40,885 nucleotides of DNA from an uncultured Candidatus Peribacteria bacterium (GTDB lineage Bacteria; Patescibacteriota; Gracilibacteria; UBA1369; PNNO01), in contig CAYFUK010000001.1 in NCBI GenBank assembly GCA_964346325.1, positions 1-40,885 of the forward strand, in the 5' to 3' direction. Of this stretch, positions 1 to 14,123 are shown one piece after another. The notes beneath the pieces were generated by a model. It did no database searches. It was not told the origin of the DNA and saw only the letters and a program-made list of their open reading frames with translations. The position numbers and the translations under genes were made by a program. Position 1 is the first letter of the stretch; every line of letters starts with the position of its first letter.

Positions 1-60
1 TTATATTATTGCAAAAGTTATTAAAATTATTGAACGATAGGTTTTGATTGCGTTTTAGCC

Positions 61-89
61 TTGAGAAAAAGCCGATTTTTTGGTATAAT
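61..89 (+). promoter_or_regulatory. sigma70-type promoter candidate for the giant-protein operon
   Basis: TTGAGA (61-66), a 17-nt spacer, then the TG-extended -10 TGGTATAAT (81-89). It ends 27 nt upstream of the first ATG at 117. Confidence 0.5.
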
Positions 90-116
90 AATTTAATAAA
101 AATAAAAATAAAACGG

Positions 117-443
117 ATGAATCAAACTAGAGCTGAAAAAACGGAAAAAGCCCTGCGCGAAGTGGTCATTTTGCTTTTAGACAACTGCATGCTTTTATCG
201 GTTGAAGAAAAACAAAACATAGGTGAACTTATTCCGTTGCTTAATAAAAATGAACTTACGGAGTTATTTCAGCTGCTTTTGGGCTCAAAAAGAAGAACAA
301 ACAATATACTCGAAGATCTTGCCGCGGAGTATCCGGCGGTAATGTACGACCTTGATGAATATCAAAAAGAAACTCTTAAAACCGTTTTTAAAGATGAAAG
401 AGATGTTTTAAAAATATCACTTAATAAAACAAATGAATCCTAA
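117..443 (+). CDS. small hypothetical protein (108 aa, helical), first gene of the giant-protein operon
   Basis: The ORF-track frame 48-443 starts at a TTG inside the predicted promoter. The first ATG is at 117 (MNQTRAEK...). No recognisable motif. Its stop overlaps the next start (ATGAATCCTAA, 433-443). Confidence 0.55.
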   Translation: MNQTRAEKTEKALREVVILLLDNCMLLSVEEKQNIGELIPLLNKNELTELFQLLLGSKRRTNNILEDLAAEYPAVMYDLDEYQKETLKTVFKDERDVLKISLNKTNES

Positions 444-3400
444 AACCGCATTAAAAAAAGGTGTGGAATCAGCTGCAAAACAGGTTCCCGAAGCAAAGGA
501 GCAGGTTAAGGAAAAAGCAGCCAAAAGAAGCATGTTTGCAAAAGAAATGCAGTATCAGGTTTATAGAATTGAGAATGTTCTTAAAATAAAAGATGCAAAA
601 ACTTTAAGAAAATTTGTTAAAGAAAACAGCAAATGGTACAAAAATGCAACTTTAACGAACTTTTTTAAATCTTATGAAGCAAAAAAAACAAATGAATTTA
701 TTGAAAAGGCAAAGCAAAAAACCGGCCGGGAGCGCGAGAAACTGTTGATGGGTATTCGTGAGATAGTTTATAAAGCAAAAAAAGAAAAGTACGCGGCAAA
801 AAAGGGCGCGGAAAAAGTGCGGAAAGAAAGAGACAAAGAAACCGAAAAGCTTAAATCTTTGATTGAAAAAGATTTAAACGAACAGGAGATAATTGATATT
901 GAGACCAGCATGTATGATCCGCTTGAGTTTCCGAAGGATAAAATGGATTTTAATAAGATTCAGCAATATTATCTTAAGATTTTAACCGGACAAAAGGTTT
1001 TGGCTGTTCATGCAAAAGGCATGCAGGAGAAATATCAGGGGTCCATGAAAAAAGCTCAAAAATTTCAGGAAAAATATAAATCCGGATGGAGAAAATATGC
1101 GGGCATAGCTGACTGGGGTTACAGAAAAGCAAAAGGTATATGGGGATCGATTAAAAGCGTGTGGTCGGATGATGAGAAGCCGCCTTCACAGTCGGATAAA
1201 ATCAATTCTTTGATGAAAAAGACCGCCAAAGAATATGAAAACAGAATGGCCAGGGTAAAAAATTTAAAGGATAATTTACAGAACAGGTCCAATGAAATGA
1301 AAATCGGACTCGGGACTTTTAAAACAAATTTAAGGGAAAAATTAAAAACACTTATTTCACGCGGGGAATGGACAAAAGCCAAGCAAAAAGAACGCGAATT
1401 TCTAAAAGAAAAATTGAAACAGCAAAAACAGAGAATGGAGGACTCACTTACAAAAGCAAGAAGTCAGGGCGAACAGATTGATAATGCTAAACAGGGCACT
1501 TTAAATTTGAGCCGGGCTTTGCAAAAAAAATATGCAGGCATTGAGAGCGGCGAAAAAAATCTTAACGGCAGAATTAAAGCCGTACTGGCAAGAGTTAAAA
1601 AGCTTGAGAATTATTACGGTTCCGATGACCCGCGTGTCAGGCATATTCGTGAAAACGTTTTGCTGCCTTTAATGCAGGCGCGCGAAAAAATCTCCACTTC
1701 AAAAGAGAACACTGAAGTTAAAATCACAAATGTTGATAAAAAGAATCAAAAGCTGGACATGCTCAAGGCGGATACTTACCTTGCCGCTACTTCTTCGGTG
1801 GATCAGATTTCTAAATTGGATCTGCAGATTTCCAGTGAAGGTAAAAAAATCGATGTACTTAAAAATAAAAGATTTGAACTTCATAAATTACTTGAAGAAA
1901 TGGAGTTCGCTTACGCCGCTGTTGATGAATTCAAGGGTAATGTGGGTAAGAATCTGGATAAAATGAACAAAAATAATGATAAAACAGTTGAAGCTTTAAA
2001 CAAACAGCTTAATGCACTTAATAAAACAAAAGTTAGTCCTCCGGGGCTTGGTTCAAGTTTGTATAATACCGTATTGATAGGTAAACTGGGATTTTACGGA
2101 GCGGTTGTTGAATTGCCGTTTAAGTATACACCCCGCGCTATAGGCTATGCTTTTGCCAAGCTGTTTGGAAGCGATGCTGAATGGGATGATACAAAAAACT
2201 GGACTTTACCGGGTTTGATTGAAGGTGTTACTTCAAAATATGATGAGTGGCTTGATAAAGGAGGCATTAAACAACATTTATCGGAAGATTCAAGCAGCTT
2301 TACCAAACTGATTGCTGAAATTGGAAATTTTGGTGCCGGTGTGGTTGGTATGGCAAATGGAGTTGTAAGGGGTATGAATGCACTTATTTTTGAGACTCCG
2401 AGAACACTGGATTCAATAGGAAAGATTATTACCGACTGGCAATACACAAAAGAAGCAGGCAAAGCTGTTATTAATTATCACCATTGGGAAAAAGGCGATT
2501 ACGGTATAGCCGGCGGTAAAACCGCCGGGGACATACTTTTGTTGGTTTTAACCGCGGGTGCTTCAGCCGGCGGACAGGCCGCGGCAAAAACCGCTGCGGT
2601 TGCGGGTAGAACAAGCAGGCTCGCAAGAGCGCTTGCCTACACTAAAGGCTTTGTTTTGGAGGGCGGAAGAAAGCTTGCAACAGCGCCATATAGAATTGTG
2701 AAATCCGTAAAGAGAATTGGTGTAACAGGTATAGCAAAAGCTCCTTTTGTTCTTACTTACAGGGGTGGCAGGTACGTGTTTGACGTTACGCGCGGCGTAG
2801 TTACCGGTAAAGGAATGACCTATGCATATAAAACAAGATTATCGCGAATTGTTGGCAAAGAAGGCTCGGTCATTGCGCCTGCCGAAGGATCAAAACTGGC
2901 AAGATTAATAGATGATACCGATGATATAGCCAAGTCTGCGAAATTTGAACAAGGAAAGGTTGGGAAATTGATTGAAAATTCCGATATGAAAAATCTATTC
3001 GATAAAGTAAGAGAAAGCGGAGTTAAAGGTTTGTCAATGGATGAGCTGGGGCAATTATATCAGGGAATGGGAAAATTGATGTACGGGAAGAGAACGGGAT
3101 TAATCGCGAGAACAAGGATAGAAGGTTTTAGAAGCAGACTCGGTAAATATATGAAAACAAGAGCAAAGGCAGAAGGATACGAAAGGTATCTTAATAGAGC
3201 CGGCGGTGACATTGATTTACTTAAACAAAATCCAACAACCTTGGCAGGTGTACGCACACTTAAAACAAGAATTCGTGAAAGAATACTTGATATTGATGAT
3301 GAAATTCCAAAGTTAGAAAGAAGAATTGCAAGACTGGAAAAAGATGCAACAGGAAAAGCTGCAAAATTACACTGGTCAAAAAAATTACAACGCATTAAAA

Positions 3401-4074
3401 AAGAAACACCTTTGTTGCAAGCTAAGTACAGACAATTAAGCTACAAAGCGATTCTTAAAAATCGTCCGGTGGCTTTATACAACGCAGCTAAAGAAAAAGC
3501 GGCGAAACTTGCCGAATCCTTTAAAGGTAAGAGCAAAGCTGAAATTGCAAAACAACTGGCTAAAACTGTTACTGCTCCGGTGTGGCTCCCTTATAAATAC
3601 GGAGCAAAACTTATTCAGCGTTATTACAGGTTTTATACAAAGCCGGATAAAGCGGGAGCAATTAAAACTTTAAAGCAAAAAGGAATTCTAAAAGAAGGTT
3701 CTGATGCGGATATGCTTGTGAATTATAAAGCCTTAAGTGATTCTTCAACTCAAATAAACAAGCTTGTTAAATCGGGCAAAGTAAGAGAAGCGGTTGAACT
3801 TTACCAAACAGCCAGAATACATGCTAATGGAGCCGGGATTCCCTTTGCTGCAATTGATCGCTCGTTTATGGGGCATCTGCACAGGGTAGCTCCGCCAACG
3901 GCAAATTATATAAGCAAAGTAACCGATTTAATTGATCCGCGTGTTATAAACGGCCTTCCTGAAAAATTAAAAATAAATTCAGCGGCATGGAAAAAAGAAA
4001 GCGAAAAGCATGCCGGGCTTCTGTCTAAAATGAAGCAAAATACCAAAATAGGAAAAAAATTTATTAATAAATAA
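433..4074 (+). CDS. giant hypothetical protein (1213 aa): Lys/Glu-rich coiled coil with an internal Gly/Ala-rich hydrophobic core
   Basis: Uninterrupted 3.6-kb ORF in an AT-rich genome. Composition is K/E-rich and heptad-like. The core at aa 534-800 includes the glycine zipper GAGVVGMANGVVRG and DILLLVLTAGASAGG. There is no signal peptide and no cysteine. Confidence 0.8.
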   Translation: MNPKTALKKGVESAAKQVPEAKEQVKEKAAKRSMFAKEMQYQVYRIENVLKIKDAKTLRKFVKENSKWYKNATLTNFFKSYEAKKTNEFIEKAKQKTGREREKLLMGIREIVYKAKKEKYAAKKGAEKVRKERDKETEKLKSLIEKDLNEQEIIDIETSMYDPLEFPKDKMDFNKIQQYYLKILTGQKVLAVHAKGMQEKYQGSMKKAQKFQEKYKSGWRKYAGIADWGYRKAKGIWGSIKSVWSDDEKPPSQSDKINSLMKKTAKEYENRMARVKNLKDNLQNRSNEMKIGLGTFKTNLREKLKTLISRGEWTKAKQKEREFLKEKLKQQKQRMEDSLTKARSQGEQIDNAKQGTLNLSRALQKKYAGIESGEKNLNGRIKAVLARVKKLENYYGSDDPRVRHIRENVLLPLMQAREKISTSKENTEVKITNVDKKNQKLDMLKADTYLAATSSVDQISKLDLQISSEGKKIDVLKNKRFELHKLLEEMEFAYAAVDEFKGNVGKNLDKMNKNNDKTVEALNKQLNALNKTKVSPPGLGSSLYNTVLIGKLGFYGAVVELPFKYTPRAIGYAFAKLFGSDAEWDDTKNWTLPGLIEGVTSKYDEWLDKGGIKQHLSEDSSSFTKLIAEIGNFGAGVVGMANGVVRGMNALIFETPRTLDSIGKIITDWQYTKEAGKAVINYHHWEKGDYGIAGGKTAGDILLLVLTAGASAGGQAAAKTAAVAGRTSRLARALAYTKGFVLEGGRKLATAPYRIVKSVKRIGVTGIAKAPFVLTYRGGRYVFDVTRGVVTGKGMTYAYKTRLSRIVGKEGSVIAPAEGSKLARLIDDTDDIAKSAKFEQGKVGKLIENSDMKNLFDKVRESGVKGLSMDELGQLYQGMGKLMYGKRTGLIARTRIEGFRSRLGKYMKTRAKAEGYERYLNRAGGDIDLLKQNPTTLAGVRTLKTRIRERILDIDDEIPKLERRIARLEKDATGKAAKLHWSKKLQRIKKETPLLQAKYRQLSYKAILKNRPVALYNAAKEKAAKLAESFKGKSKAEIAKQLAKTVTAPVWLPYKYGAKLIQRYYRFYTKPDKAGAIKTLKQKGILKEGSDADMLVNYKALSDSSTQINKLVKSGKVREAVELYQTARIHANGAGIPFAAIDRSFMGHLHRVAPPTANYISKVTDLIDPRVINGLPEKLKINSAAWKKESEKHAGLLSKMKQNTKIGKKFINK

Positions 4075-4090
4075 TCTAACAAATATAAAA

Positions 4091-6103
4091 ATGTTTTATT
4101 CAAAATTAATATTCAAAAACGGAGTTGAAACACCTCCGCAAGCGCCGTCGCAAACTCCCGATCAAAAAGCTGAAAAGCTTGAGAAAAGATCGCAGCAAAA
4201 AATTGATGCAAAAAGAAAGGCTGCCGAAAATCTTAAAGATAACAAAAAAGAGCTTTTAAAAAGATGGAAAGAAAATAATCCCGAAAAAAAAGTTGAAGCG
4301 ATTGAAGACGATCCCAAGACCGTGGCAATAGAAAGAATAACAGATTCTTTAAAAGCAAAAGAGACGTATCTTTTGATATCTTTAATGGAAGAGTATTTTG
4401 GAGATAAAGGTGAAAAACTCGCTAAAAAGTTTTTGGCAAAGGGTCTTAAACAAAGTAAATCCGGTGATATTAATTTAAAGTATTTTAGGGAATTCTTTAG
4501 CTGGAAAGGTTACGAGGGTAAATACAGAAGTTTTAATGTTCCGAGAAAACTCGGGTTTTATTATCTTGATCAGTATATGCTTGGCTGGACAACCGTTGAC
4601 CGTATTTCCGTAGGTCCGAAATCCGATAAAGATGATGAACCCTCGGGCGAGAGATATCTTGTTAATGCTTTATATCATATAAAAGCTCAATATAATCAGG
4701 ACACAAAAGATAATGATATGGGGTTATCTGAAGCGCAGCTTAAAAAAGGTTTGAAATTTTTCAAAGATAAACCTGAAGAATTCGAAAACCTGATGAAAAA
4801 GAAAGAATCGGGACTTGGTAAAGACACAATCAAATGGTTTAAAGAAAAAGCGAACGAACACTGGGAGCCTTTAACGGAAAAAATGGCTGCCGCATTAAAC
4901 GTTGTTATCGGAAAGGGTGTAGGAAAATATCTTTACAGATATAATGAAAATCAAAAAAGAATTTATGCAATTTTAATTCAGGGGCAAGAGCCGGAACCTG
5001 ATTTGGGTGTGGGCGGTTATATGGAAATTAAAGATGATAAAATAGGATCATGGAACAAATTTGAAGATTACAATAAATTCAAGACCGAATATATCGATGA
5101 TATGGAAGCTGATAAAGTTAGTGCCGAGGTTGGAAAAGAAAAGTCCGAAGCCGGAGAAGAAATCACAAAAGAACAAAAATTAAAACAAACAGCGGGAATG
5201 ATTTCAACTATCAAGGGAATAAAAGAGGGTCATCCGACTTTTCATGATCTTGATGATTATTATGAAGATATAAAAACAAAACTTAAAAAAGAGCTTAAAG
5301 AAAAAAAGGGAATCACCAAAAATCTTGATTCCATTGTTCAGGCAAGAGTTGATGATATTAAATCAAAAGTGGATTCGGCCATTGAATCCGACGAAGCACT
5401 TAAAGAAGCCGGTGAAAAAGACAAATCAACAAAACTTGAAATCAGGGTTAATTCAAATGACGAAGTAACCGTTAAGTTTGATAAACCCGCGGGCAGAGAA
5501 AAATGGAGAAAACTTGCCGAAAAAGCCAAAGAAAAAGGTTCCGATGTTGGGGCTTTGGCTAAAAAAGCAAGGTCGCAGTTAAATGAAAAAGTTAAAAAAA
5601 TGTTCGGGAAGGGAGCTCCGATTGCAATGTGGTTTTTGGATAAAATTTTAAAAATTGATGAAGGGATCAAAAAAATATTAAGCGGAAAAAGCGCTCCCAT
5701 TACAGCCTTTGCACTTGGTGCTCTTGGGATTTCCGTTACACCGGCACTTGTTGGAGCCAGAAAATATAACAGTAAAAAATTCGATAAATTATTAAGCGGA
5801 TTATTCAAAGACGACAAAGAAAAAGAAGCAAAATATAAAAAGAAGGTAACCTTAACGCAGGATTATAAGCTTTCGGGTTATTCCATTACCATTCCGAAAG
5901 GTGAAGGAATCATACTTAAATCCGGCAAAAAATTGCAAATAAAGGGCGGTGAACTTGTAGGTAAAAAAGAAAAGAAAAAAGGATTGTTCTCGGGAGGAGA
6001 AGAAGTAGCCGAACTTGGAAAAGATCAGGAAATAGTGATTGAAGATGGTACAACAATTCCGGATGGGACAATTATCAAAAAAATGAAAGTAAAAAAATCT
6101 TAA
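4091..6103 (+). CDS. large hypothetical protein (670 aa), Lys-rich, with an internal hydrophobic hairpin
   Basis: 2-kb ORF starting 16 nt after the previous stop. The hydrophobic segment at aa 508-556 reads GAPIAMWFLDKIL...SAPITAFALGALGISVTPALVGA. The C-terminal end is beta-like and Gly/Ile/Lys-rich. No cysteine and no signal peptide. Confidence 0.8.
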   Translation: MFYSKLIFKNGVETPPQAPSQTPDQKAEKLEKRSQQKIDAKRKAAENLKDNKKELLKRWKENNPEKKVEAIEDDPKTVAIERITDSLKAKETYLLISLMEEYFGDKGEKLAKKFLAKGLKQSKSGDINLKYFREFFSWKGYEGKYRSFNVPRKLGFYYLDQYMLGWTTVDRISVGPKSDKDDEPSGERYLVNALYHIKAQYNQDTKDNDMGLSEAQLKKGLKFFKDKPEEFENLMKKKESGLGKDTIKWFKEKANEHWEPLTEKMAAALNVVIGKGVGKYLYRYNENQKRIYAILIQGQEPEPDLGVGGYMEIKDDKIGSWNKFEDYNKFKTEYIDDMEADKVSAEVGKEKSEAGEEITKEQKLKQTAGMISTIKGIKEGHPTFHDLDDYYEDIKTKLKKELKEKKGITKNLDSIVQARVDDIKSKVDSAIESDEALKEAGEKDKSTKLEIRVNSNDEVTVKFDKPAGREKWRKLAEKAKEKGSDVGALAKKARSQLNEKVKKMFGKGAPIAMWFLDKILKIDEGIKKILSGKSAPITAFALGALGISVTPALVGARKYNSKKFDKLLSGLFKDDKEKEAKYKKKVTLTQDYKLSGYSITIPKGEGIILKSGKKLQIKGGELVGKKEKKKGLFSGGEEVAELGKDQEIVIEDGTTIPDGTIIKKMKVKKS

Positions 6104-6128
6104 AACTATTATTTAAAATAAAAATAAA

Positions 6129-9100
6129 ATGGCATCAAAATTAAGTTTAAAATCAAAAGGCATTGAGCGGCCCGAATCGTTTGAGGCTGTTGAAGCAAAG
6201 AAGCTCACCGAATCAGAAGAAGAAAAGATCTCGCGGAGTCTGATTATAAGGTGGTATATGGCTAAAAAGTTTGAAAAACTTAAAGCTTTGCAGAATAAAA
6301 TTATCGAAGCGTCGTACAGTGAGAGGGAAGAAATTAAAGAAAGAATAATAAAAAACACAAAAGAAGAATTGTCGAAACATAAAGATTTAACAAAAGAAGA
6401 AGTTGAAAGACGCTCAAAACAGCTTGCCGATGAAGTTATTAATGTTGCGGAAGGGCGTGCAGATATGTCGCTTGTTGCAAAAAGGTATGCTGTGCAGGAA
6501 GAAGAACAGAAAGTTTTTTATAAAGTTGTTGATGGATTTGTGAGCCGTGAAAATCAGAGTGAAACATTGCAGAAAATTGCAAAGAATCCTAAGTTTGCTG
6601 ATTTTTTGAATGGAATTAAAGCTCATGATCCCGCTACTGCAAAAAGAATAGATATGGCAATTAAAGAAGGTGACTACGAGGGTTTGCAAAAAATAGTTGA
6701 AAAATCAACAGACGGTAAAATAAATAAATCCGCAATGAACAGATTTATGGCGATCGGAGTACTCGGATCCGCTCATGTTAAGGAATACACACCGGTTGAT
6801 ACGGTAAACAAAGCTATATCCTTTTTGGATCAGTACAGGCATGTGGGGCATGGATTTGCCTTGGATAAAGCTTCGCAGGATATCGGGATTCCTTTTTTGC
6901 TTGTTGCCCGTTTTGCTTCGTGGACACTCAGGGACTTCAGGCAGATGGATAATATTATGCAGAGAAACAAACATCTGATTGAACAAAAAGATAAAAAATC
7001 GATTAAAGATAACGAACGTCTGGTTTTTATAGAACACATGCATAAGGCAAGAATGAAACTTGAAGATAAAGTGAAAGGTGATAAAGATCTTCAGTCAAAT
7101 TTTGAGAAAGCTTTGGATAAGTATCTGGACAGCAAAGAGGAACTTGGCGAACGTGATAAACAGGAGATAAAACAGGCATCGAGATATGAGGATTTAAGGC
7201 TTGTTCAGCTTTTTGAGTATTATTACGCGGAAGATGAAGACCGATACAGATGGTTGATGAAGTCAGCATCAAGAGTTCCAACAATGATAAGATTTGCCAA
7301 ACATGTGTTTGGAGAGCAGAGGTATATAAAAGCCACAATGCTTAGGTATACAAAAAGAAGACTTCTTGACCGTTCAATTACCAACTTCAGGATGAATGCA
7401 AAAAACTGGGGTATGAAAGATATTCTCAGAAATATGAATGATTTTGAAAATAAGATTACGAGATCAAGAGGGGAAGCATTAACAAAATATGAAGATCTGT
7501 ATCGAGAAGCTTCTAATTATAAAGTTGATGCCGATGAAATAACGGCAAAAAGAAGCTATCTTGATAAAGAGCTTTTGGATCAGGACAGAATGCTTCAAAG
7601 GTATGCCATTTTGGTAAAAAGGGCTACAAGGATTATGTCTGATAAGGCCAAAAAGGTTATTGAAGCGGGTAAATCAATACAGGCGGCACAAAAAGGAGCC
7701 GGAAAAAGTTTTTTAACAAAAAAGCTGCATCAGCTTCCTCATGTTTCCGATCAGACACTTGAAGCAATAGGGCTGGATAAAGCAAAAAAAGCGGGTTATA
7801 CGGGTGCCGATTTGATCAACGGATATACAAGAAGGCTTGTTGATATTAAAACCATGGAGGATGTAACAAGAGCAAGATTCAGTGCTTTGGCGGATGTGGT
7901 TGATACCAATGTTGCAAGGCCGGTTGGTACTGCGTGGCAGGGAAGAATGGACGTAGCCAAAGGTGTTAGTGACAGAGCAAAAATACGAAAAAAATTACAG
8001 AATATCGAAGACCTTGCTAAACCGCACAAAGGCCGTTATATTGCCAAGACATTCGGCTTACCGGCAATTATTATAGGTATTCAGGGGTACGATTTATTTA
8101 CGGGAAAGGCAAAAACAAATGAGGTCCTGTGGGATATGGGAGAAGCGGCAGGTGGATTTGTACCTTTTTTGGGTACCGCACTTGATATAAGGGGCCTGAT
8201 TAAAGGTGAGAGTTTATCAGGCAGAAAATTAAATACAAAAGAGCGATGGATGTATGCGGGATTTGCAGCGATCGGAGCAATCGCCGATGCCGCAATATTA
8301 ATTGGCGGACTCGGGCTTGGTATACGTGCGGGGCTCGGAGGAGTGAGAGCGGGCAGACGTGCCGTTAAAGCCGGCAGCGCACTTGCGGGAGCAAGAAAAA
8401 CAGGCGGTTTACGTGATATGGCTTATGCCTCAAAATTGCCGTTTTTTCAGCGGCAGATTGCCAAAGCCGGCTCAAAATTCAATAAAGTAAGAAGAGCCGA
8501 CGGAGCAGCTGAAGCTTTGTATACAAGAAAAGCAATTACTCATGCAAATAAAATATCAAAGTATAATTCGGGAGTTAAAGACACGTATAAAATTGAAAAA
8601 TTTTCTGATATCGAAGGCAAAATTAAGATTGCCGAGAAGGCCGGAGAAATGCCTACAGTAAGAAAACTCGAGAGATTAAGAAAAACGTTAAAAAAGTTGG
8701 GAAGTATTGAAGGTCTTGATGTTTTAAAAGACGTTGGAAAAGGCATTGATATACCGCGGGGATTTTTCAGCAGGCAGTGGCTTAAAAGTAAAAAGGCATT
8801 TCTTGGCATTAAACAATGGTTGCTTTCAATCGGAATTCCTCCCAAGACTATCAAAAACTACGAAAAATCATTTAGTGCCGTTGCAAGCGCAAAGCAAAAT
8901 AAAGCCAAGGCATTGGATGATCTTCATGATTTGATAAAAGCAAAAGAAGGAACAAGACTTAAAGCTGTTGATACATATAAAGAGTATATGGTTAAAGCGG
9001 AAAAACACGGGCAGACAGCTATTGATTACACAAAAGTCGTTGATGATATATCAAAACAAAAACGAAAACATATAAGACTTGGAGGAATAAAAAGATCAAA

Positions 9101-9959
9101 AAAGGAACATCTGAAACATGTAGAAAAATTACATAAAGGGAAAAAAGCAACCGAAGCCGAAGTTAATGCCGCAAAAAAAGCATTAAAAGAGGCTGATGAA
9201 AAAATTAAGGCTTCAAGAAAATACAGTAAAAAATTGATCGATCGTAAGAAAAAATTGTCCAAAGAACTTAAAACAAAAGGTGATGATGCCAAAGGCTGGA
9301 AAAAAGAGTTTGACAGTGCAAATACAAGTTTAAGTAAAATTGAAACAGATGTTGTAAGGCACGAAGATAAGCTAAGAGCCGCAGAAGAATCTATTGTTTC
9401 CGCAAATACAAAAAGAGCGATGATGTCCATGGAAATGGAAAATAAAGCAACGCGAATGGCACGTTACCACGATAAAACAGCTAGTGTGGCAAAGCTTTTG
9501 CAGTATGGGGGGCTTGCAATGGGCGGAATATGGTTGTTCTCCGGTTTTCACGCCGGACCTGCGGAGCAACTTAAAACAGCGAGTAAAGCCGTTAAAGGTG
9601 CAGCTAAAATGGGAGGCAAAACATTTGATTATGTAATGCTTCAGGATCATTCGGGAAGACCTCCTATTGATCAAATGGTTGAGGAGCGTGTTAGAAAAGT
9701 TAAAATGCGAGAAGAACTTAACGGTTATGTTGAGAAAGCAACCCGGCGCGGTGTAAAACCCGAAGAAGTGCTTGCAAAACACTGGAATACCGATGAAGCA
9801 AAAGAAATCGCAAGACGTCAGGGCTTATACCAAAAAGTGCAAAAACTTATTGCCGATAAAAAGGTAACACCCGAAACAGCGCAAAGAGCAAGGGCAAAAC
9901 TGCGCGATGTTGCAACAGGCGACTCTGCGGGCAAAGCCGGTGAAAAGTTGGCCGGATAA
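6129..9959 (+). CDS. giant hypothetical protein (1276 aa): coiled coil with a PT-TG-like Gly-rich membrane core
   Basis: 3.8-kb ORF. Residues 641-760 read TFGLPAIIIGIQGYDLFTGK...GGFVPFLGTALDIRGLIKGESLSGRKLNTKERWMYAGFAAIGAIADAAILIGGLGLGIRAGLGG. A second hydrophobic hairpin is LLQYGGLAMGGIWLFSGFHAG (aa 1123-1143). No cysteine and no signal peptide. Confidence 0.8.
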   Translation: MASKLSLKSKGIERPESFEAVEAKKLTESEEEKISRSLIIRWYMAKKFEKLKALQNKIIEASYSEREEIKERIIKNTKEELSKHKDLTKEEVERRSKQLADEVINVAEGRADMSLVAKRYAVQEEEQKVFYKVVDGFVSRENQSETLQKIAKNPKFADFLNGIKAHDPATAKRIDMAIKEGDYEGLQKIVEKSTDGKINKSAMNRFMAIGVLGSAHVKEYTPVDTVNKAISFLDQYRHVGHGFALDKASQDIGIPFLLVARFASWTLRDFRQMDNIMQRNKHLIEQKDKKSIKDNERLVFIEHMHKARMKLEDKVKGDKDLQSNFEKALDKYLDSKEELGERDKQEIKQASRYEDLRLVQLFEYYYAEDEDRYRWLMKSASRVPTMIRFAKHVFGEQRYIKATMLRYTKRRLLDRSITNFRMNAKNWGMKDILRNMNDFENKITRSRGEALTKYEDLYREASNYKVDADEITAKRSYLDKELLDQDRMLQRYAILVKRATRIMSDKAKKVIEAGKSIQAAQKGAGKSFLTKKLHQLPHVSDQTLEAIGLDKAKKAGYTGADLINGYTRRLVDIKTMEDVTRARFSALADVVDTNVARPVGTAWQGRMDVAKGVSDRAKIRKKLQNIEDLAKPHKGRYIAKTFGLPAIIIGIQGYDLFTGKAKTNEVLWDMGEAAGGFVPFLGTALDIRGLIKGESLSGRKLNTKERWMYAGFAAIGAIADAAILIGGLGLGIRAGLGGVRAGRRAVKAGSALAGARKTGGLRDMAYASKLPFFQRQIAKAGSKFNKVRRADGAAEALYTRKAITHANKISKYNSGVKDTYKIEKFSDIEGKIKIAEKAGEMPTVRKLERLRKTLKKLGSIEGLDVLKDVGKGIDIPRGFFSRQWLKSKKAFLGIKQWLLSIGIPPKTIKNYEKSFSAVASAKQNKAKALDDLHDLIKAKEGTRLKAVDTYKEYMVKAEKHGQTAIDYTKVVDDISKQKRKHIRLGGIKRSKKEHLKHVEKLHKGKKATEAEVNAAKKALKEADEKIKASRKYSKKLIDRKKKLSKELKTKGDDAKGWKKEFDSANTSLSKIETDVVRHEDKLRAAEESIVSANTKRAMMSMEMENKATRMARYHDKTASVAKLLQYGGLAMGGIWLFSGFHAGPAEQLKTASKAVKGAAKMGGKTFDYVMLQDHSGRPPIDQMVEERVRKVKMREELNGYVEKATRRGVKPEEVLAKHWNTDEAKEIARRQGLYQKVQKLIADKKVTPETAQRARAKLRDVATGDSAGKAGEKLAG

Positions 9960-9988
9960 TAAAATTAATTATTTAACTTCAAATAAAC

Positions 9989-10213
9989 ATGGAATTAAAA
10001 TTCAACGCAAAACTCATTTCTCTTTTTATAGTTCGCATTTTTGAAGTCGCGATTCTGTATGCGGTGAATGTGTGGGTATGGTATAACTTTCCGCCACCAT
10101 ACAATTTTTGGCTTATAATATCTTTGATAGGATTATATGTTTTGTATGCGGGCGTGACTCTGTTTAACGATTATTACGAACTCACACGCGGCGAAGGCGA
10201 ACCAATGGAGTAA
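9989..10213 (+). CDS. small two-TM membrane protein (74 aa), last gene of the operon
   Basis: Two hydrophobic helices (LISLFIVRIFEVAILYAVNVWVWY and FWLIISLIGLYVLYAGVTLF) and an acidic tail. Starts 29 nt after the giant gene. An intrinsic terminator follows directly. Confidence 0.6.
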   Translation: MELKFNAKLISLFIVRIFEVAILYAVNVWVWYNFPPPYNFWLIISLIGLYVLYAGVTLFNDYYELTRGEGEPME

Positions 10214-10235
10214 ATTTCTTGTTGCCAAACAGCTG

Positions 10236-10268
10236 GTCCATCCCTAAACTTAGGGGTGGACTTTTTTT
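10236..10268 (+). terminator. rho-independent terminator ending the giant-protein operon
   Basis: GTCCATCCC (10236-10244) pairs with GGGGTGGAC (10253-10261): 9 bp including one G-U pair, with an 8-nt loop. T7 follows at 10262-10268. Confidence 0.65.
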
Positions 10269-10272
10269 GAGT

Positions 10273-10318
10273 ACTCGGTACCCTGGGGTACCCGGTACAT
10301 CCATTTACTCGGTAACCC
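10273..10318. promoter_or_regulatory. GGTACC-type palindrome and direct repeats upstream of ndk (operator candidate)
   Basis: GGTACCC-TG-GGGTACC is a perfect 7-bp inverted repeat at 10277-10292. ACTCGGTACCC (10273-10283) recurs as ACTCGGTAACCC (10307-10318). The ndk ATG is at 10327. Confidence 0.25.
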
Positions 10319-10326
10319 ACTTAATT

Positions 10327-10806
10327 ATGAACTTCGACGGAGTTGAAGAAAAAACACTTGTACTTGTAAAACCCGATGCTATCCAGCGCAGCTTAACAGG
10401 AGAAATCATCAACCGCTTTGAGCGAAAAGGCCTTAAACTTGTAGGAATCAAAATGATGGGCCTTGATGATGAGCTTCTCACAAGGCATTATTCTCATTTG
10501 GCTGATAAACCTTTTTTCCCCAGCCTTACCAAGTTTATGAAGAGTTCGCCTGTAATTGCAATGTGCTGGGAAGGGCTTGAAGTTGTTAATGCTGTGCGTG
10601 AACTTTGCGGAATCACTAAAGCAAGGGAAGCTGAAGCCGGCTCTATAAGAGGCGATTTTGCAATGAGTGTAAGTTGTAATGTTGTGCATGCATCCGATTC
10701 TGTGGAAAATGCTCAAACCGAAGTTAGCAATTTTTTCAAACAGGAAGAGATTCACGATTATGCGAAATCAGAATATGAGCATGTGTATGCCGAAGATGAA
10801 AAATAG
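10327..10806 (+). CDS. ndk: nucleoside diphosphate kinase
   Basis: Matches include KTLVLVKPDAIQR, INRFERKGLKLVG, SIRGDF and the active-site NVVHASDS. The start is set at ATG 10327 because the TTG-extended frame from 10219 runs through the upstream terminator. Confidence 0.9.
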   Translation: MNFDGVEEKTLVLVKPDAIQRSLTGEIINRFERKGLKLVGIKMMGLDDELLTRHYSHLADKPFFPSLTKFMKSSPVIAMCWEGLEVVNAVRELCGITKAREAEAGSIRGDFAMSVSCNVVHASDSVENAQTEVSNFFKQEEIHDYAKSEYEHVYAEDEK

Positions 10807-10813
10807 TCATATT

Positions 10814-11575
10814 ATGCACGTTATTTTAAACGGCAAACTGGTTGCTAAAAATAAAGCAAAGATCAGCGTATTTGATCGCGGCTTTAAGTTCGGGGATGCA
10901 ATTTACGAAACTTTAAGAACAATCAACGGCACTCCCTGGCTTTTAACGCAGCATCTTAAACGTCTCAGAAATTCAGCGAAAATTTCGGGAATAACAGTTC
11001 CTTTAAAAAATAATGAATTTGAGTATCACATAAAAAGACTTCATAAAAAAAACAACAACAAAGAATCCAGAATCCGAATAACTCTTTCAAGGGATCTCAC
11101 ACTTTTGATTGAAGCTGAAAAACTCACAAAACCCCACAATCTCAGTAAAGGCGTTTCCGCAATCACATACAAGGCCGAGCGTCCCAACCCCGGCATAAAG
11201 TCCACCAATATGCTTCCATCGATTCTGGCGCGCAGAGAAGCCGATAAAAAAAACGCCTACGAAGCACTGCTTGTAAATAAAAAAAATAATATTACCGAAG
11301 GTGCTTTTTCAAATATTTTTGCGGTAGAAAACGGGCGCCTTATAACTCCCAAAAACGGCATATTGGAAGGCACTGTTAGAAATTACATAATAAAAAAATA
11401 TCCAAAAGTCATGCAAAAATCGATTCCGCTCTCTAAAATCCATACCTACGACGAATTGTTTGTTACCTCAAGCACATTCGGTGTGGTTCCGATTATAAAA
11501 GTTGACGGGAAGCCTATAAACAATGGTACAATAGGTCGGATAACACAATATATTATTAAACTTTTGCCTCTATGA
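10814..11575 (+). CDS. pabC: class IV aminotransferase-fold protein, likely aminodeoxychorismate lyase
   Basis: N-terminus MHVILNGKLVAKNKAKISVFDRGFKFGDAIYETLR, the catalytic-Lys region IKSTNMLPSILARREA, and ELFVTSS. About 250 aa, directly overlapping the folP start. ATG 10796 is an alternative start. The pabC assignment rests on context. Confidence 0.65.
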   Translation: MHVILNGKLVAKNKAKISVFDRGFKFGDAIYETLRTINGTPWLLTQHLKRLRNSAKISGITVPLKNNEFEYHIKRLHKKNNNKESRIRITLSRDLTLLIEAEKLTKPHNLSKGVSAITYKAERPNPGIKSTNMLPSILARREADKKNAYEALLVNKKNNITEGAFSNIFAVENGRLITPKNGILEGTVRNYIIKKYPKVMQKSIPLSKIHTYDELFVTSSTFGVVPIIKVDGKPINNGTIGRITQYIIKLLPL

Positions 11576-12426
11576 ATGCCTCTATAAAACTTAAAAGCAG
11601 AAAGAAATTTCTAAAACTCGATAAACCGCTTGTAATGGGAGTTTTAAATGTAACTCCGGATTCCTTTTATGAAAAAGGAAAATTTGTTGATACTGATGCA
11701 GCACTTGCAAGGTATGACGAAATGGTTAAACAGGGCGCTGATATTATTGATATAGGCGGTGAATCCACGGGTCCGCGAAGTAAGGATGTTAAAGCCAAGG
11801 AAGAACTTGACCGCGTATTGCCCCTTTTAAAAAAAGCATGCAAAAAACGCACAAAATGCTGGACTTCAATTGACACCTACAAACCCGAAGTGGCAAAAGC
11901 CGCACTTAAAGAAGGCGTTGATATGATTAATGACATTCTGGCATTACGCCATGATCCCAAACTTGCAAAGCTTATCGCAAAAGAGCGGGTTCCGGTGGTT
12001 ATGATGTACAGCAAAGATGACACGGGCCGGACATCGGGCCGAAAAGTTAAGTATGATGATGTTGTTGAAGACATTAAAGATTTTTTGAAAAAGCGTATTA
12101 AAATTGCAAAGGAAGCCGGAATTTCTGATGAACATATTATTGTTGATCCGGGGCAGGGTGCTTTTGTTAGTACCGATTCTCAATACAGCCTTCAGATTCT
12201 TAAAAATTTAAAAAAGTTCAGAGCATTCGGCTACCCTATTCTTGTCGGGTCATCACGAAAATCTTTTATAGGAGAAGTTTTGGACCTGCCGGTTGACGCA
12301 AGGCTGGAAGGTTCGCTGGCATGTGCAGCGGTTGCTGTTATGAACGGTGCGTCAATAATAAGAACTCACGATGTTAAAGAAACAAGGCGCATAGTTGATA
12401 TGGTATGGGCGATTAAGAACTCTTAA
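11572..12426 (+). CDS. folP: dihydropteroate synthase
   Basis: VMGVLNVTPDSFYEKG, GADIIDIGGESTGPRS, DPGQGAF, LVGSSRKSFIG and IIRTHDV. Confidence 0.92.
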   Translation: MNASIKLKSRKKFLKLDKPLVMGVLNVTPDSFYEKGKFVDTDAALARYDEMVKQGADIIDIGGESTGPRSKDVKAKEELDRVLPLLKKACKKRTKCWTSIDTYKPEVAKAALKEGVDMINDILALRHDPKLAKLIAKERVPVVMMYSKDDTGRTSGRKVKYDDVVEDIKDFLKKRIKIAKEAGISDEHIIVDPGQGAFVSTDSQYSLQILKNLKKFRAFGYPILVGSSRKSFIGEVLDLPVDARLEGSLACAAVAVMNGASIIRTHDVKETRRIVDMVWAIKNS

Positions 12427-12430
12427 AGAT

Positions 12431-12643
12431 TTATCGTTGCCTCCAAACACCGTCTTCCGTTTTTTCAACAGCGGGATGAGTGGTTTTTGAACCCAGTATG
12501 TCGGCTACTTCTCTTGATATCGCAGGATCACCGTTTTGATAGCCGTGATCTCTATATAATCTGTCTGCGTGTGATTCCAAAATATCCCATGAATCGGTAT
12601 CCTGTTCAAAAGGATTTATGTCGGTTTCATTGTTGGTTTTCAT
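12431..12643 (-). CDS. small acidic hypothetical protein (70 aa)
   Basis: ATG-initiated ORF on the opposite strand between folP and the PTPS gene. No known motif. It shares an L-x-x-DHG-x-x-NG motif with the product of 17496-17918. Confidence 0.5.
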   Translation of the reverse strand: MKTNNETDINPFEQDTDSWDILESHADRLYRDHGYQNGDPAISREVADILGSKTTHPAVEKTEDGVWRQR

Positions 12644-12744
12644 AATTGATTTAGGGTTAGTTTACGTCGTGAATTTATACTTAAATCTGATTTGTGTCAA
12701 ATAACTTTGATTTTTTATTGTAAATAGGCCAGAATATACCCGCT

Positions 12745-13089
12745 ATGAAACTTACTAAAATTTTTACATTCGACAGTGCGCATTTTCTCCCCAACTATCA
12801 TGGGAAGTGCGAGAACATGCACGGCCATACATATAAAATGGAGGTTACCATTGAAGGCAAGCCTAATCCGGACGACGGAATGATTTTGGATTTTAAAAAA
12901 TTAAAGGAAATTGTAAATGAAAAAGTAATTGAAAACCTCGACCATAAATTGCTTAACGATATTGTTGAAAATCCTTCAGCTGAGTTTTTGGCGATTTGGG
13001 TTTGGGATCAGCTTAAAAACGACCTGAATTTAAAACAGATAAAAATTTACGAGACATCTGATTCATATATAACTTATGAAGGAAACTGA
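12745..13089 (+). CDS. queD: 6-pyruvoyl-tetrahydropterin synthase family protein (QueD/PTPS, with a Cys-Glu PTPS-III-like active site)
   Basis: FDSAHFLPNYHGKCENMHGHTYKMEVTIEG carries the C-x3-HGH zinc/catalytic motif, with Glu directly after the Cys. LDHKLLND also matches. 114 aa. Confidence 0.85.
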   Translation: MKLTKIFTFDSAHFLPNYHGKCENMHGHTYKMEVTIEGKPNPDDGMILDFKKLKEIVNEKVIENLDHKLLNDIVENPSAEFLAIWVWDQLKNDLNLKQIKIYETSDSYITYEGN

Positions 13090-13621
13090 AATTAAAATTC
13101 TCGGAATCCGTGGAAACGAAGTTGAGGCAAAGCTTGCAGAGCTCAATGCTGAAAAAACTTTTGACGGTTTGCTTAAAGTCAGATATTTGGATACTCCCGA
13201 TAATGAGATAAAAGATCGCGGTGATCTGTTGAGGATCCGTGATTTTACCGGAGATTTTGTTGAAATTTGTTATAAATCGAATAAAAGGGAAGAAAACGGA
13301 TGTAAAGTTTATGATGAAGTTCACTTAAGAGCCGATGATTTTGATGAAGCAACGAAAATGTTTGATAAACTCGGTTTTAAAGTAAGCACCTATTATGAAA
13401 AAAAGAGAAAGGTTTTTAAACTCGATAATGCAGAGGTTGTAATGGATCAATATCCGAAAATTGAGCCTTTTATAGAGATTGAGGCCGAAGATGCCGCTCA
13501 AATTGAAGAATTGGTGAAAAAGCTCGGGCTTGAAGACAATGAAAAATCTTCCGAAACAATAAACGGGTTACTGAAATCAAAGTATCCGGATATTGAATTG
13601 AATAATCTAACTTTTGATTAA
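13076..13621 (+). CDS. CYTH-domain protein (triphosphate tunnel metalloenzyme, class IV adenylate cyclase fold)
   Basis: The N-terminal ExExK signature is ETEIK at aa 3-7. LLRIRDF and EPFIEIEAED also match. 181 aa. The start overlaps the PTPS gene end by 14 nt. Confidence 0.8.
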   Translation: MKETEIKILGIRGNEVEAKLAELNAEKTFDGLLKVRYLDTPDNEIKDRGDLLRIRDFTGDFVEICYKSNKREENGCKVYDEVHLRADDFDEATKMFDKLGFKVSTYYEKKRKVFKLDNAEVVMDQYPKIEPFIEIEAEDAAQIEELVKKLGLEDNEKSSETINGLLKSKYPDIELNNLTFD

Positions 13622-13640
13622 AAAGTGCTAAATACGAAGA

Positions 13641-14123
13641 ATGTTTAAAGCTTACCTTGCATTGGGGTCAAATTCAGGAAAACGTCCGCATAATCTTGAA
13701 AAAGCAAGAAAATTGCTTGAAGAATGCGGAATTAAAATTACGAAAGTTTCGAAAATTTACGAAACAGAGCCGGTTTCGCGAATCAATCAGGGGAAATTTC
13801 TGAATCAATGCTTTGAAATCAAAACAAATCACGATCCCCGAAGATTGCTCTCAATTTGCCAAATGATAGAAAAACAAATGGGCAGAAAAAAGCTTCGGGC
13901 CAAAAAAATCGGGTACGAAAAACCCAGAATCATAGACATAGATATACTTTTATATGAAAACGGAATAATAAATAAAAAATTTTTAAAAGTTCCGCATCCG
14001 CGCATGCATTCGCGAAAATTTGTACTTGAACCCTTAAATGATATTGCACCCAGATTGGTGCATCCCGGGCAACGCAAAACAATCAACAATCTATTGAAAA
14101 ATATCAAAAAACCTCTAAATTAA
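13641..14123 (+). CDS. folK: 2-amino-4-hydroxy-6-hydroxymethyldihydropterin pyrophosphokinase (HPPK)
   Basis: AYLALGSNSG, IYETEPV, RIIDIDILLYEN and LKVPHPRMHSRKFVLEPLNDIAP. Confidence 0.9.
   Translation: MFKAYLALGSNSGKRPHNLEKARKLLEECGIKITKVSKIYETEPVSRINQGKFLNQCFEIKTNHDPRRLLSICQMIEKQMGRKKLRAKKIGYEKPRIIDIDILLYENGIINKKFLKVPHPRMHSRKFVLEPLNDIAPRLVHPGQRKTINNLLKNIKKPLN

Follow-up and report, generated by a model that had tools for sequence, protein, structure and literature searches.

The question raised by this locus is whether a very large protein with a pre-toxin motif, followed by a small membrane-protein gene, represents a polymorphic toxin with its immunity gene or a conserved system of the cell which produces it. 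The window, by which we mean the whole stretch of 40,885 nucleotides analyzed here (positions 1 to 40,885, forward strand, of contig CAYFUK010000001.1 in GenBank assembly GCA_964346325.1), comes from an uncultured Candidatus Peribacteria bacterium with a 1.12 Mb genome that is 99 % complete. It begins with five + strand genes in close succession, which form an operon at 117-10213. The fourth gene (6129..9959, + strand) encodes the giant protein C, a basic protein of 1276 residues (isoelectric point (pI) 9.9, no Cys) which is predicted to be all-alpha and bears a motif resembling PT-TG (PF14449). The fifth (9989..10213, + strand) encodes an acidic protein of 74 residues (pI 4.7) with two transmembrane (two-TM) segments. 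A preliminary description, made from the letters alone, had taken this pair for a polymorphic toxin/immunity layout. The motif was found to be genuine, if divergent, while the toxin layout was not supported, and a membrane complex of the producer cell now seems to us the probable answer.

The PT-TG motif and conserved core of protein C

The stretch which the preliminary description had compared with PT-TG corresponds to residues 675-718 of protein C (nt 8151-8282). The PF14449 model aligned, through its positions 6-58 (of 68), to residues 672-733 (8142..8327, + strand), with a score of 16.1 bits and E=0.011. In a six-frame scan of the whole 1.12-Mb genome, nothing but this site in protein C resembled PT-TG (E=8.8e-4, 19.7 bits). 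Although both scores for protein C alone stay under the Pfam gathering score of 23.5 bits, the match is backed by all of its full-length orthologues (7/7, best E 3.2e-5) and by relatives which pass the threshold. A profile of residues 630-780 (151 columns, five orthologues) searched against 1.84 billion representative proteins returned just 68 proteins, and 32 of 44 distant proteins from that search matched PF14449, the best of them over the cut-off with E 3.1e-12.

Residues P679, G682, (T683), D686, G693, G698, L701 and R706 are conserved across near and distant members, and F712, G713, G716, D720, G727 and R733 are further conserved over the whole set. For PT-TG, the Gly/Asp/Arg pattern has been reported to vary less than the TG does (Becerra Soto et al. 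2026, PMC13483458). Compared by description, the motif residues of protein C agree with the pattern given in that study, namely TG plus Gly, Asp and Arg within ~15-20 residues. Because 7/7 orthologues match, the profile retrieves threshold-passing proteins and the motif residues are conserved, the match is more than chance. Judged from these profiles and alignments, protein C carries a divergent PT-TG motif and the relationship is real at the family level, so that the family named in the preliminary description was borne out in this divergent form. Its figure of about 540 residues beyond the motif was also accurate, with 543 counted.

The PT-TG motif runs directly into a glycine zipper. This hydrophobic segment, residues 706-741 (8244..8351, + strand), is the only strongly hydrophobic stretch of protein C (Kyte-Doolittle mean 1.99); it contains the invariant D720 and R733 and is followed by the basic stretch RAGRRAVKAG. 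On the 5' side of the motif lies a weakly hydrophobic segment, FGLPAIIIGIQGYDLFTG, at residues 642-659 (8052..8105, + strand), which is conserved only within the family of the same architecture. The core which spans these elements, residues 631-750, is the most conserved part of protein C, with 62-79 % identity vs 37-66 % in the N-terminus and 35-58 % in the C-terminus.

Conservation of the C-terminal region

Orthologues of protein C are ~1272-1282 residues long, share 38-64 % identity and can be aligned end to end with hardly any gaps. The C-terminal 526 residues are collinear in all of them with almost no insertions or deletions, and identity in the C-terminal part was 58 % against 66 % in the N-terminal part at the high end, and 35 % against 37 % at the low end. 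The preliminary description had expected a variable toxic C-terminus after PT-TG. What was found is a C-terminal region nearly as conserved across orthologues as the N-terminal one, an outcome which that description itself had named as evidence to the contrary.

In the closest orthologue pair (P0006/P0007, 87 % identical) the N-terminal part was 89 % identical, the core 95 % and the C-terminal part 83 %. The dip was limited to residues ~900-1080, where identity per 60-residue bin was 77, 70 and 52 %, and the last 200 residues were back at 95 %. This is unlike the pattern of a polymorphic toxin, since such a toxin would drop at the junction and stay unrelated to the end, along with its immunity gene. 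The ratio of nonsynonymous to synonymous substitution rates (dN/dS) was calculated for the same pair by the Nei-Gojobori method, with dS near saturation, and was 0.07 for protein C overall, 0.05 for the N-terminus, 0.03 for the core, 0.07 for residues 750-899, 0.17 for residues 960-1079 and 0.05 for residues 1080-1272. By this measure (dN/dS 0.05-0.17) the C-terminal region is evidently under purifying selection.

The locally variable stretch, predicted to be coiled coil, covers residues ~960-1079 (9006..9365, + strand), where dN reached 0.28 vs 0.02-0.08 elsewhere. Diversifying selection on this stretch was considered and rejected; with dN/dS at 0.17 and dS saturated (~1.2-1.7), only "relaxed, not positive" can be said of it. 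The stretch at 9006-9365 looks relaxed or exposed, and its flanks are 95 % identical in the closest pair.

No toxin, LXG, WXG, Rhs or PAAR domain was detected in protein C or in any of the 66 family members, and Pfam and NCBIfam searches of protein C returned no N-terminal trafficking or secretion domain (LXG, WXG, Rhs/PAAR, VgrG, TPS). Searches for WXG100 and LXG proteins of a type VIIb secretion system (T7SSb) in the 99 %-complete genome gave only sub-threshold noise, as they do in E. coli, and neither YukC/EssB nor YukD/EsaB was found; EssC was not searched for. There were no orphan toxin or immunity cassettes, and the gene for protein C belongs to the core genome, as a single copy whose synteny is fixed. 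The polymorphic-toxin reading therefore fails, because the C-terminus is collinear and constrained, there is no toxin or trafficking domain, no T7SSb component was found and the gene is single copy in fixed synteny. On the strength of these comparisons the region is not a polymorphic toxin/immunity cassette, and the layout proposed in the preliminary description, which would call for a toxin domain and cassette variation, has to be given up.

Predicted structure of the arms and a second hydrophobic segment

AlphaFold2 was run on a shallow five-sequence alignment and predicted only helices in protein C, with no globular enzyme-like domain. The arms on either side of the core were predicted to be helical and partly coiled coil. 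The predicted local distance difference test (pLDDT) score was 80-94 in the long helices of residues ~905-1110, which take in the variable stretch, 71-86 in a small helical domain at residues ~1190-1260 and 70-89 in N-terminal residues 20-210.

A glycine-rich hydrophobic hairpin had been proposed at residues 1123-1143. A conserved, moderately hydrophobic, Gly-rich segment does exist at residues 1120-1144 (9486..9560, + strand), and Q1125, G1128, G1132, W1135, F1140, G1143, P1144, E1146 and Q1147 are invariant in the region of residues 1120-1147. The segment is still recognizable in the consensus of 22 distant members with 20-39 % identity. The hairpin itself was rejected, since residues 1123-1143 form a single segment of ~21 residues which is too short for one and only moderately hydrophobic, with a hand-computed Kyte-Doolittle mean of ~0.9 that lies under the threshold of 1.1.

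The 74-residue partner protein

The 74-residue protein has two strongly hydrophobic segments (Kyte-Doolittle 2.0-2.1), the first of which contains the conserved Arg16 and Glu19, and an invariant acidic tail, NDYYELTRGEGE. The two-TM gene noted at 9989-10213 in the preliminary description is real, and it lies directly downstream in every locus of the same architecture which was examined, both within the family (four more genera) and in two other families of its order. Its absence or lack of linkage in related genomes, which that description had named as contrary evidence, was thus not observed in these loci. It follows the protein C gene at 15-47 nt in loci L001-L005 and L027, was found by tblastn in the loci of three more genera, and is present in genome G006 as an open reading frame (ORF) of 78 residues. 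In the two other families, the proteins with the core in mid-protein have 1136 and 1146 residues, and a two-TM ORF (61 and 77 residues) begins 19-25 nt after the gene of each; the 77-residue ORF shares the R..E..IL and DDY motifs with the 74-residue protein. Orthologues of the 74-residue protein are 51-77 % identical, and dN/dS for the gene is 0.07, the same pace as for protein C overall. Judged by this linkage, the 74-residue protein is a long-standing and tightly linked partner of the mid-core architecture.

Distribution and gene order

The protein C gene is present in 12/13 genomes of the family, and its location is fixed across five genera, between the other large-protein genes and ndk. 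Genes for proteins of ~100, ~1450, ~670, ~1275 and 72-78 residues, then ndk, an aminotransferase gene and folP, occur in this order in loci L001, L002, L003, L005, L021 and L027, and in L004, L008, L010 and L012 the order holds up to the contig ends. The large proteins evolve faster than the adjoining enzymes (61 % vs 91 % identity for ndk in the same genome pair), yet they remain orthologous and collinear. From gene order and orthology, the operon is vertically inherited in Candidatus Peribacteria.

Beyond the family, six other families of the order gave matches to the core only or to the core and adjacent sequence. At the class level the core is patchy, being found in 12/151 sampled genomes, one of which reads TGA as sense. 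A core-like match in the same class (G100:C1:616120-616407) contains 10 in-frame TGA codons, consistent with a code-25 relative (TGA=Gly) carrying the module. One distant family member came from Candidatus Peregrinibacteria.

Organization of the operon and companion proteins

Directly 5' of the first operon gene is a sigma-70-like promoter match, TTGAGA-17-TATAAT with TG (61..89, + strand), which has 11/12 matches and is the best within 1-10600, as a consensus match only. The first gene (117..443, + strand; the ATG at 117 is the likely start inside ORF 48-443) encodes an acidic helical protein of 108 residues (pI 4.8). Its orthologues, of 100-103 residues and 69-79 % identity, occupy the same position in L001, L002, L005 and G006, and no family match was obtained for it. 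The second gene encodes the giant protein A (433..4074, + strand; 1213 residues, pI 9.9, no Cys), which has a Gly/Ala-rich, moderately hydrophobic core at residues 543-719, and the third encodes protein B (4091..6103, + strand; 670 residues, pI 9.3, 18 % Lys, no Cys), with a single hydrophobic segment at residues 529-558. Directly after the 74-residue gene a hairpin of 12 pairs with a T-run (10235..10268, + strand) resembles an intrinsic terminator and closes the operon; no other site in the first 10.6 kb is as terminator-like.

Orthologues of protein A are longer, at 1448-1494 residues, and have an extra C-terminal repeat. Protein A of the present window is ~240-280 residues shorter than its orthologues (L001 3600-7985, L002 3598-7941, L005 3482-7963) and is without the second copy of the C-terminal repeat, the motif of which reads ...EAV.LYQSARI...DRSF..HLHRV.P.... 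Protein B is duplicated in genus g3 (G006). One of the G006 copies, an 804-residue ORF (L021 8603-11017), carries the ~105-residue N-terminal module of protein C (ISR..I..W....EKLK.LQ...) with 38-43 % identity. In protein C this helical module covers residues 23-127 (6195..6509, + strand; pLDDT 70-89). Given its fusion with one of the protein B copies in G006, the module appears to be a discrete and transferable unit, and possibly one for assembly or targeting.

Hidden PT-TG cores in proteins A and B were considered and rejected, as hhalign of the core profile against the orthologue alignments gave a probability of <1 % and BLASTP among the three large proteins found nothing. An alignment by eye of the protein B stretch PIAMWFLD...LSGK to PT-TG is likewise unsupported by hhalign and BLASTP.

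The three large proteins are all basic (pI 9.3-9.9, 14-18 % Lys) and contain no Cys in 3159 residues (433-9959) vs 0.78 % Cys in the other proteins of the window (P about 2e-11), a depletion which orthologues and more distant members of the family show as well. With pI 4.7-4.8 the two small operon proteins are acidic and so opposite in charge to the large ones, a complementarity typical of chaperone/substrate or subunit pairs.

Housekeeping genes lie 3' of the terminator (ndk, a class IV aminotransferase gene, folP, PTPS-family, CYTH, folK, a split transketolase, lepB, prs, rpiB, rpe and uvrB). A folate block at 10814-14123 of the window (pabC-like, folP, PTPS-family, CYTH, folK) is syntenic with the operon across the family, and so is the split transketolase, which is interrupted by lepB/DUF192 (window 10814-14123). 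Searches of NCBIfam, PHROGs and PADLOC, together with inspection of the neighborhood in the window, gave no meaningful match which would point to a phage, mobility or defence origin of the operon.

Comparison with known systems

TspA of S. aureus is a membrane-depolarizing type VII secretion system (T7SS) toxin with an LXG domain and a glycine-zipper C-terminus; it is conserved across strains, and its immunity protein TsaI is polytopic and embedded in the membrane. Protein C resembles this pair in its glycine-zipper region, its membrane-protein partner gene and its conservation in place of polymorphism. TspA differs in having an LXG domain, in its T7SS dependence and in its much smaller size, and there is no sequence relationship between the two. 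In architecture only, the operon also resembles the tripartite alpha-pore-forming toxins AhlABC/NheABC and the type III secretion system translocators of the IpaB/YopB class, which comprise co-encoded helical proteins, each with a hydrophobic hairpin or segment between coiled coils, and small acidic helpers. The operon proteins are two to four times larger than these, have no signal peptides and no linked secretion system, and show no significant sequence or fold similarity to them; a match to the AhlB pore-former fold (E 0.84, probability 0.04) was rejected as not significant.

With the LXG/WXG polymorphic toxins of Bacillota which contain PT-TG (Zhang et al. 2011, PMC3113570), protein C shares the motif and a small gene immediately 3'. 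Unlike them it has no LXG or WXG domain, toxin domain, C-terminal polymorphism, T7SS or arrays of immunity and orphan genes, and its motif is followed by ~540 conserved helical residues, vs a variable enzyme of 100-200 residues in those toxins (PMC3113570). Closer in some respects are the "PT-TG singleton" proteins, in which PF14449 is the only recognizable domain and many of which have been explained as cryptic WXG/LXG substrates of T7SSb (Becerra Soto et al. 2026, PMC13483458). Like the singletons, protein C has the Gly/Asp/Arg pattern, no other recognizable domain and low AlphaFold confidence in the motif; it is likewise longer than PT-TG plus a toxin would need and found outside Bacillota (PMC13483458). 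It differs from them in that its motif is in mid-protein, fused to a glycine zipper, and scores under the Pfam cut-off, and in that it is a vertically inherited core gene product with a two-TM partner and with no T7SSb component found. The survey of PT-TG in PMC13483458 makes no mention of Patescibacteria.

Proposed function and alternative explanations

We consider it probable, with a good measure of doubt, that the operon encodes a lineage-specific membrane complex of the producer cell, in which the PT-TG/glycine-zipper core is embedded in the membrane and the 74-residue protein is a dedicated subunit. The hydrophobic core would anchor or insert protein C in the membrane, where the 74-residue protein would serve it as a dedicated subunit or as a partner in its assembly. 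The conserved Arg and Glu inside the membrane segment of the small protein, together with the acidic tail, may form pairs with Asp720/Arg733 and the RAGRRAVKAG stretch of protein C. The five products could then form one envelope-associated complex, which may serve as a structural scaffold or as an interface with a host cell. Several results weigh against this proposal. Aside from residues 706-741 the hydrophobic segments are only marginally hydrophobic, as is typical also of secreted membrane-inserting proteins. Protein C has no signal peptide to fix on which side of the membrane the long arms lie, and its N-terminus is hydrophilic. As AlphaFold2 confidence in the core was very low (pLDDT ~30), we have to admit that the membrane topology and the contacts proposed with the 74-residue protein are inferred. 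No characterized homologue was found for protein C: Foldseek searches of both predicted halves against the PDB gave nothing at E<=1e-3 (best E 0.04 and 0.84, generic coiled coils), and PDB sequence searches with the core profile and the full alignment returned only STK19 (E 0.4) and tropomyosin/myosin coiled coils, which is noise. Finally, no small ORF follows in those members (G013, G030) whose core lies close to the C-terminal end, so the linkage to a small partner is specific to the mid-core architecture.

As an alternative to a resident membrane complex, the operon could encode a conserved, non-polymorphic, membrane-active effector. The three large proteins would then be exported, and their glycine-rich cores would enter a host's or competitor's membrane to form a pore or translocon there, while the 74-residue protein shields the producer's membrane or keeps the core non-inserting. 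Such a system would operate in the manner of the TspA/TsaI pair, or of tripartite alpha-pore-forming toxins and type III translocators. We regard this as unlikely, though it accounts for a good deal. Marginally hydrophobic glycine-zipper cores flanked by coiled coil are a feature of all three large proteins, which are also very basic and strongly Cys-depleted; a small membrane partner conserved over long distances is encoded where an immunity gene would be, the first operon gene encodes a small acidic protein resembling a chaperone, and conservation as such is compatible with a toxin, as TspA illustrates. In other settings PT-TG is known from antibacterial toxins which are secreted (PMC3113570, PMC13483458), and a dependence of Peribacteria on other cells has been inferred (PMC4736985). 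Against export, however, exported proteins of Peribacteria were reported in the same study to be Cys-rich, the opposite of what is found here (PMC4736985), and no signal peptide, trafficking domain or secretion system was found linked to the operon. The sole pore-former fold match, that to AhlB, provides no evidence. Purifying selection everywhere leaves no arms-race signature, and residues 706-741 are hydrophobic enough for ordinary insertion into the producer's own membrane. A bolder and more doubtful version takes PT-TG plus the glycine zipper as an autonomous membrane-insertion module and the three Cys-free basic proteins as a translocon driven into the host-cell membrane to tap its contents, with the 74-residue protein preventing self-insertion. 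If true, this would give PT-TG a concrete function and would describe a host-interaction machine of ultra-small bacteria which needs no known secretion system.

The remaining two explanations have far less in their favor. A classical polymorphic toxin with a cognate immunity gene, in which PT-TG marks the junction to a variable toxin that the 74-residue protein neutralizes, is very improbable. It would explain the PT-TG-like motif, the small membrane ORF immediately 3' and the slightly lower conservation of the C-terminal half, but it does not accommodate a C-terminus which is orthologous in all relatives, constrained, 95 % identical at its end in the closest pair and recognizable in its features at 20-39 % overall identity, nor a single-copy gene in core-genome synteny without orphan cassettes, with no toxin or trafficking domain among 66 family members and no T7SSb component found in the genome. 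A remnant of a prophage or mobile element with tape-measure-like proteins is next to negligible. The large proteins would fit such an origin in being long and helical, in having an internal hydrophobic stretch rich in Gly and in their high content of Lys; protein C nevertheless has no PHROG match, protein A has one insignificant match to a family of unknown function, and the location is fixed across five genera beside ndk, folate and pentose-phosphate genes, with no phage or integrase genes nearby.

Implications

As a toxin/immunity finding the result is negative. PT-TG is widespread and without known structure or function; for secreted toxins, the roles proposed for it are those of linker, receptor contact or cleavage site (PMC3113570, PMC13483458). 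On the reading which we favor, the PT-TG module here is a membrane-associated element reused outside a toxin context. In a giant, vertically inherited membrane protein which is not a toxin, no part is more constrained than the motif, and its fusion to a glycine zipper and its coupling to a dedicated two-TM partner point to a membrane-associated role of the module itself; the operon offers a PT-TG context free of toxin variability. For a member of the Patescibacteria with a genome of 1.1 Mb, the ~10 kb of the operon are a conserved and sizeable investment, and, having no characterized relative, the operon is a reasonable candidate for envelope or host-contact machinery.

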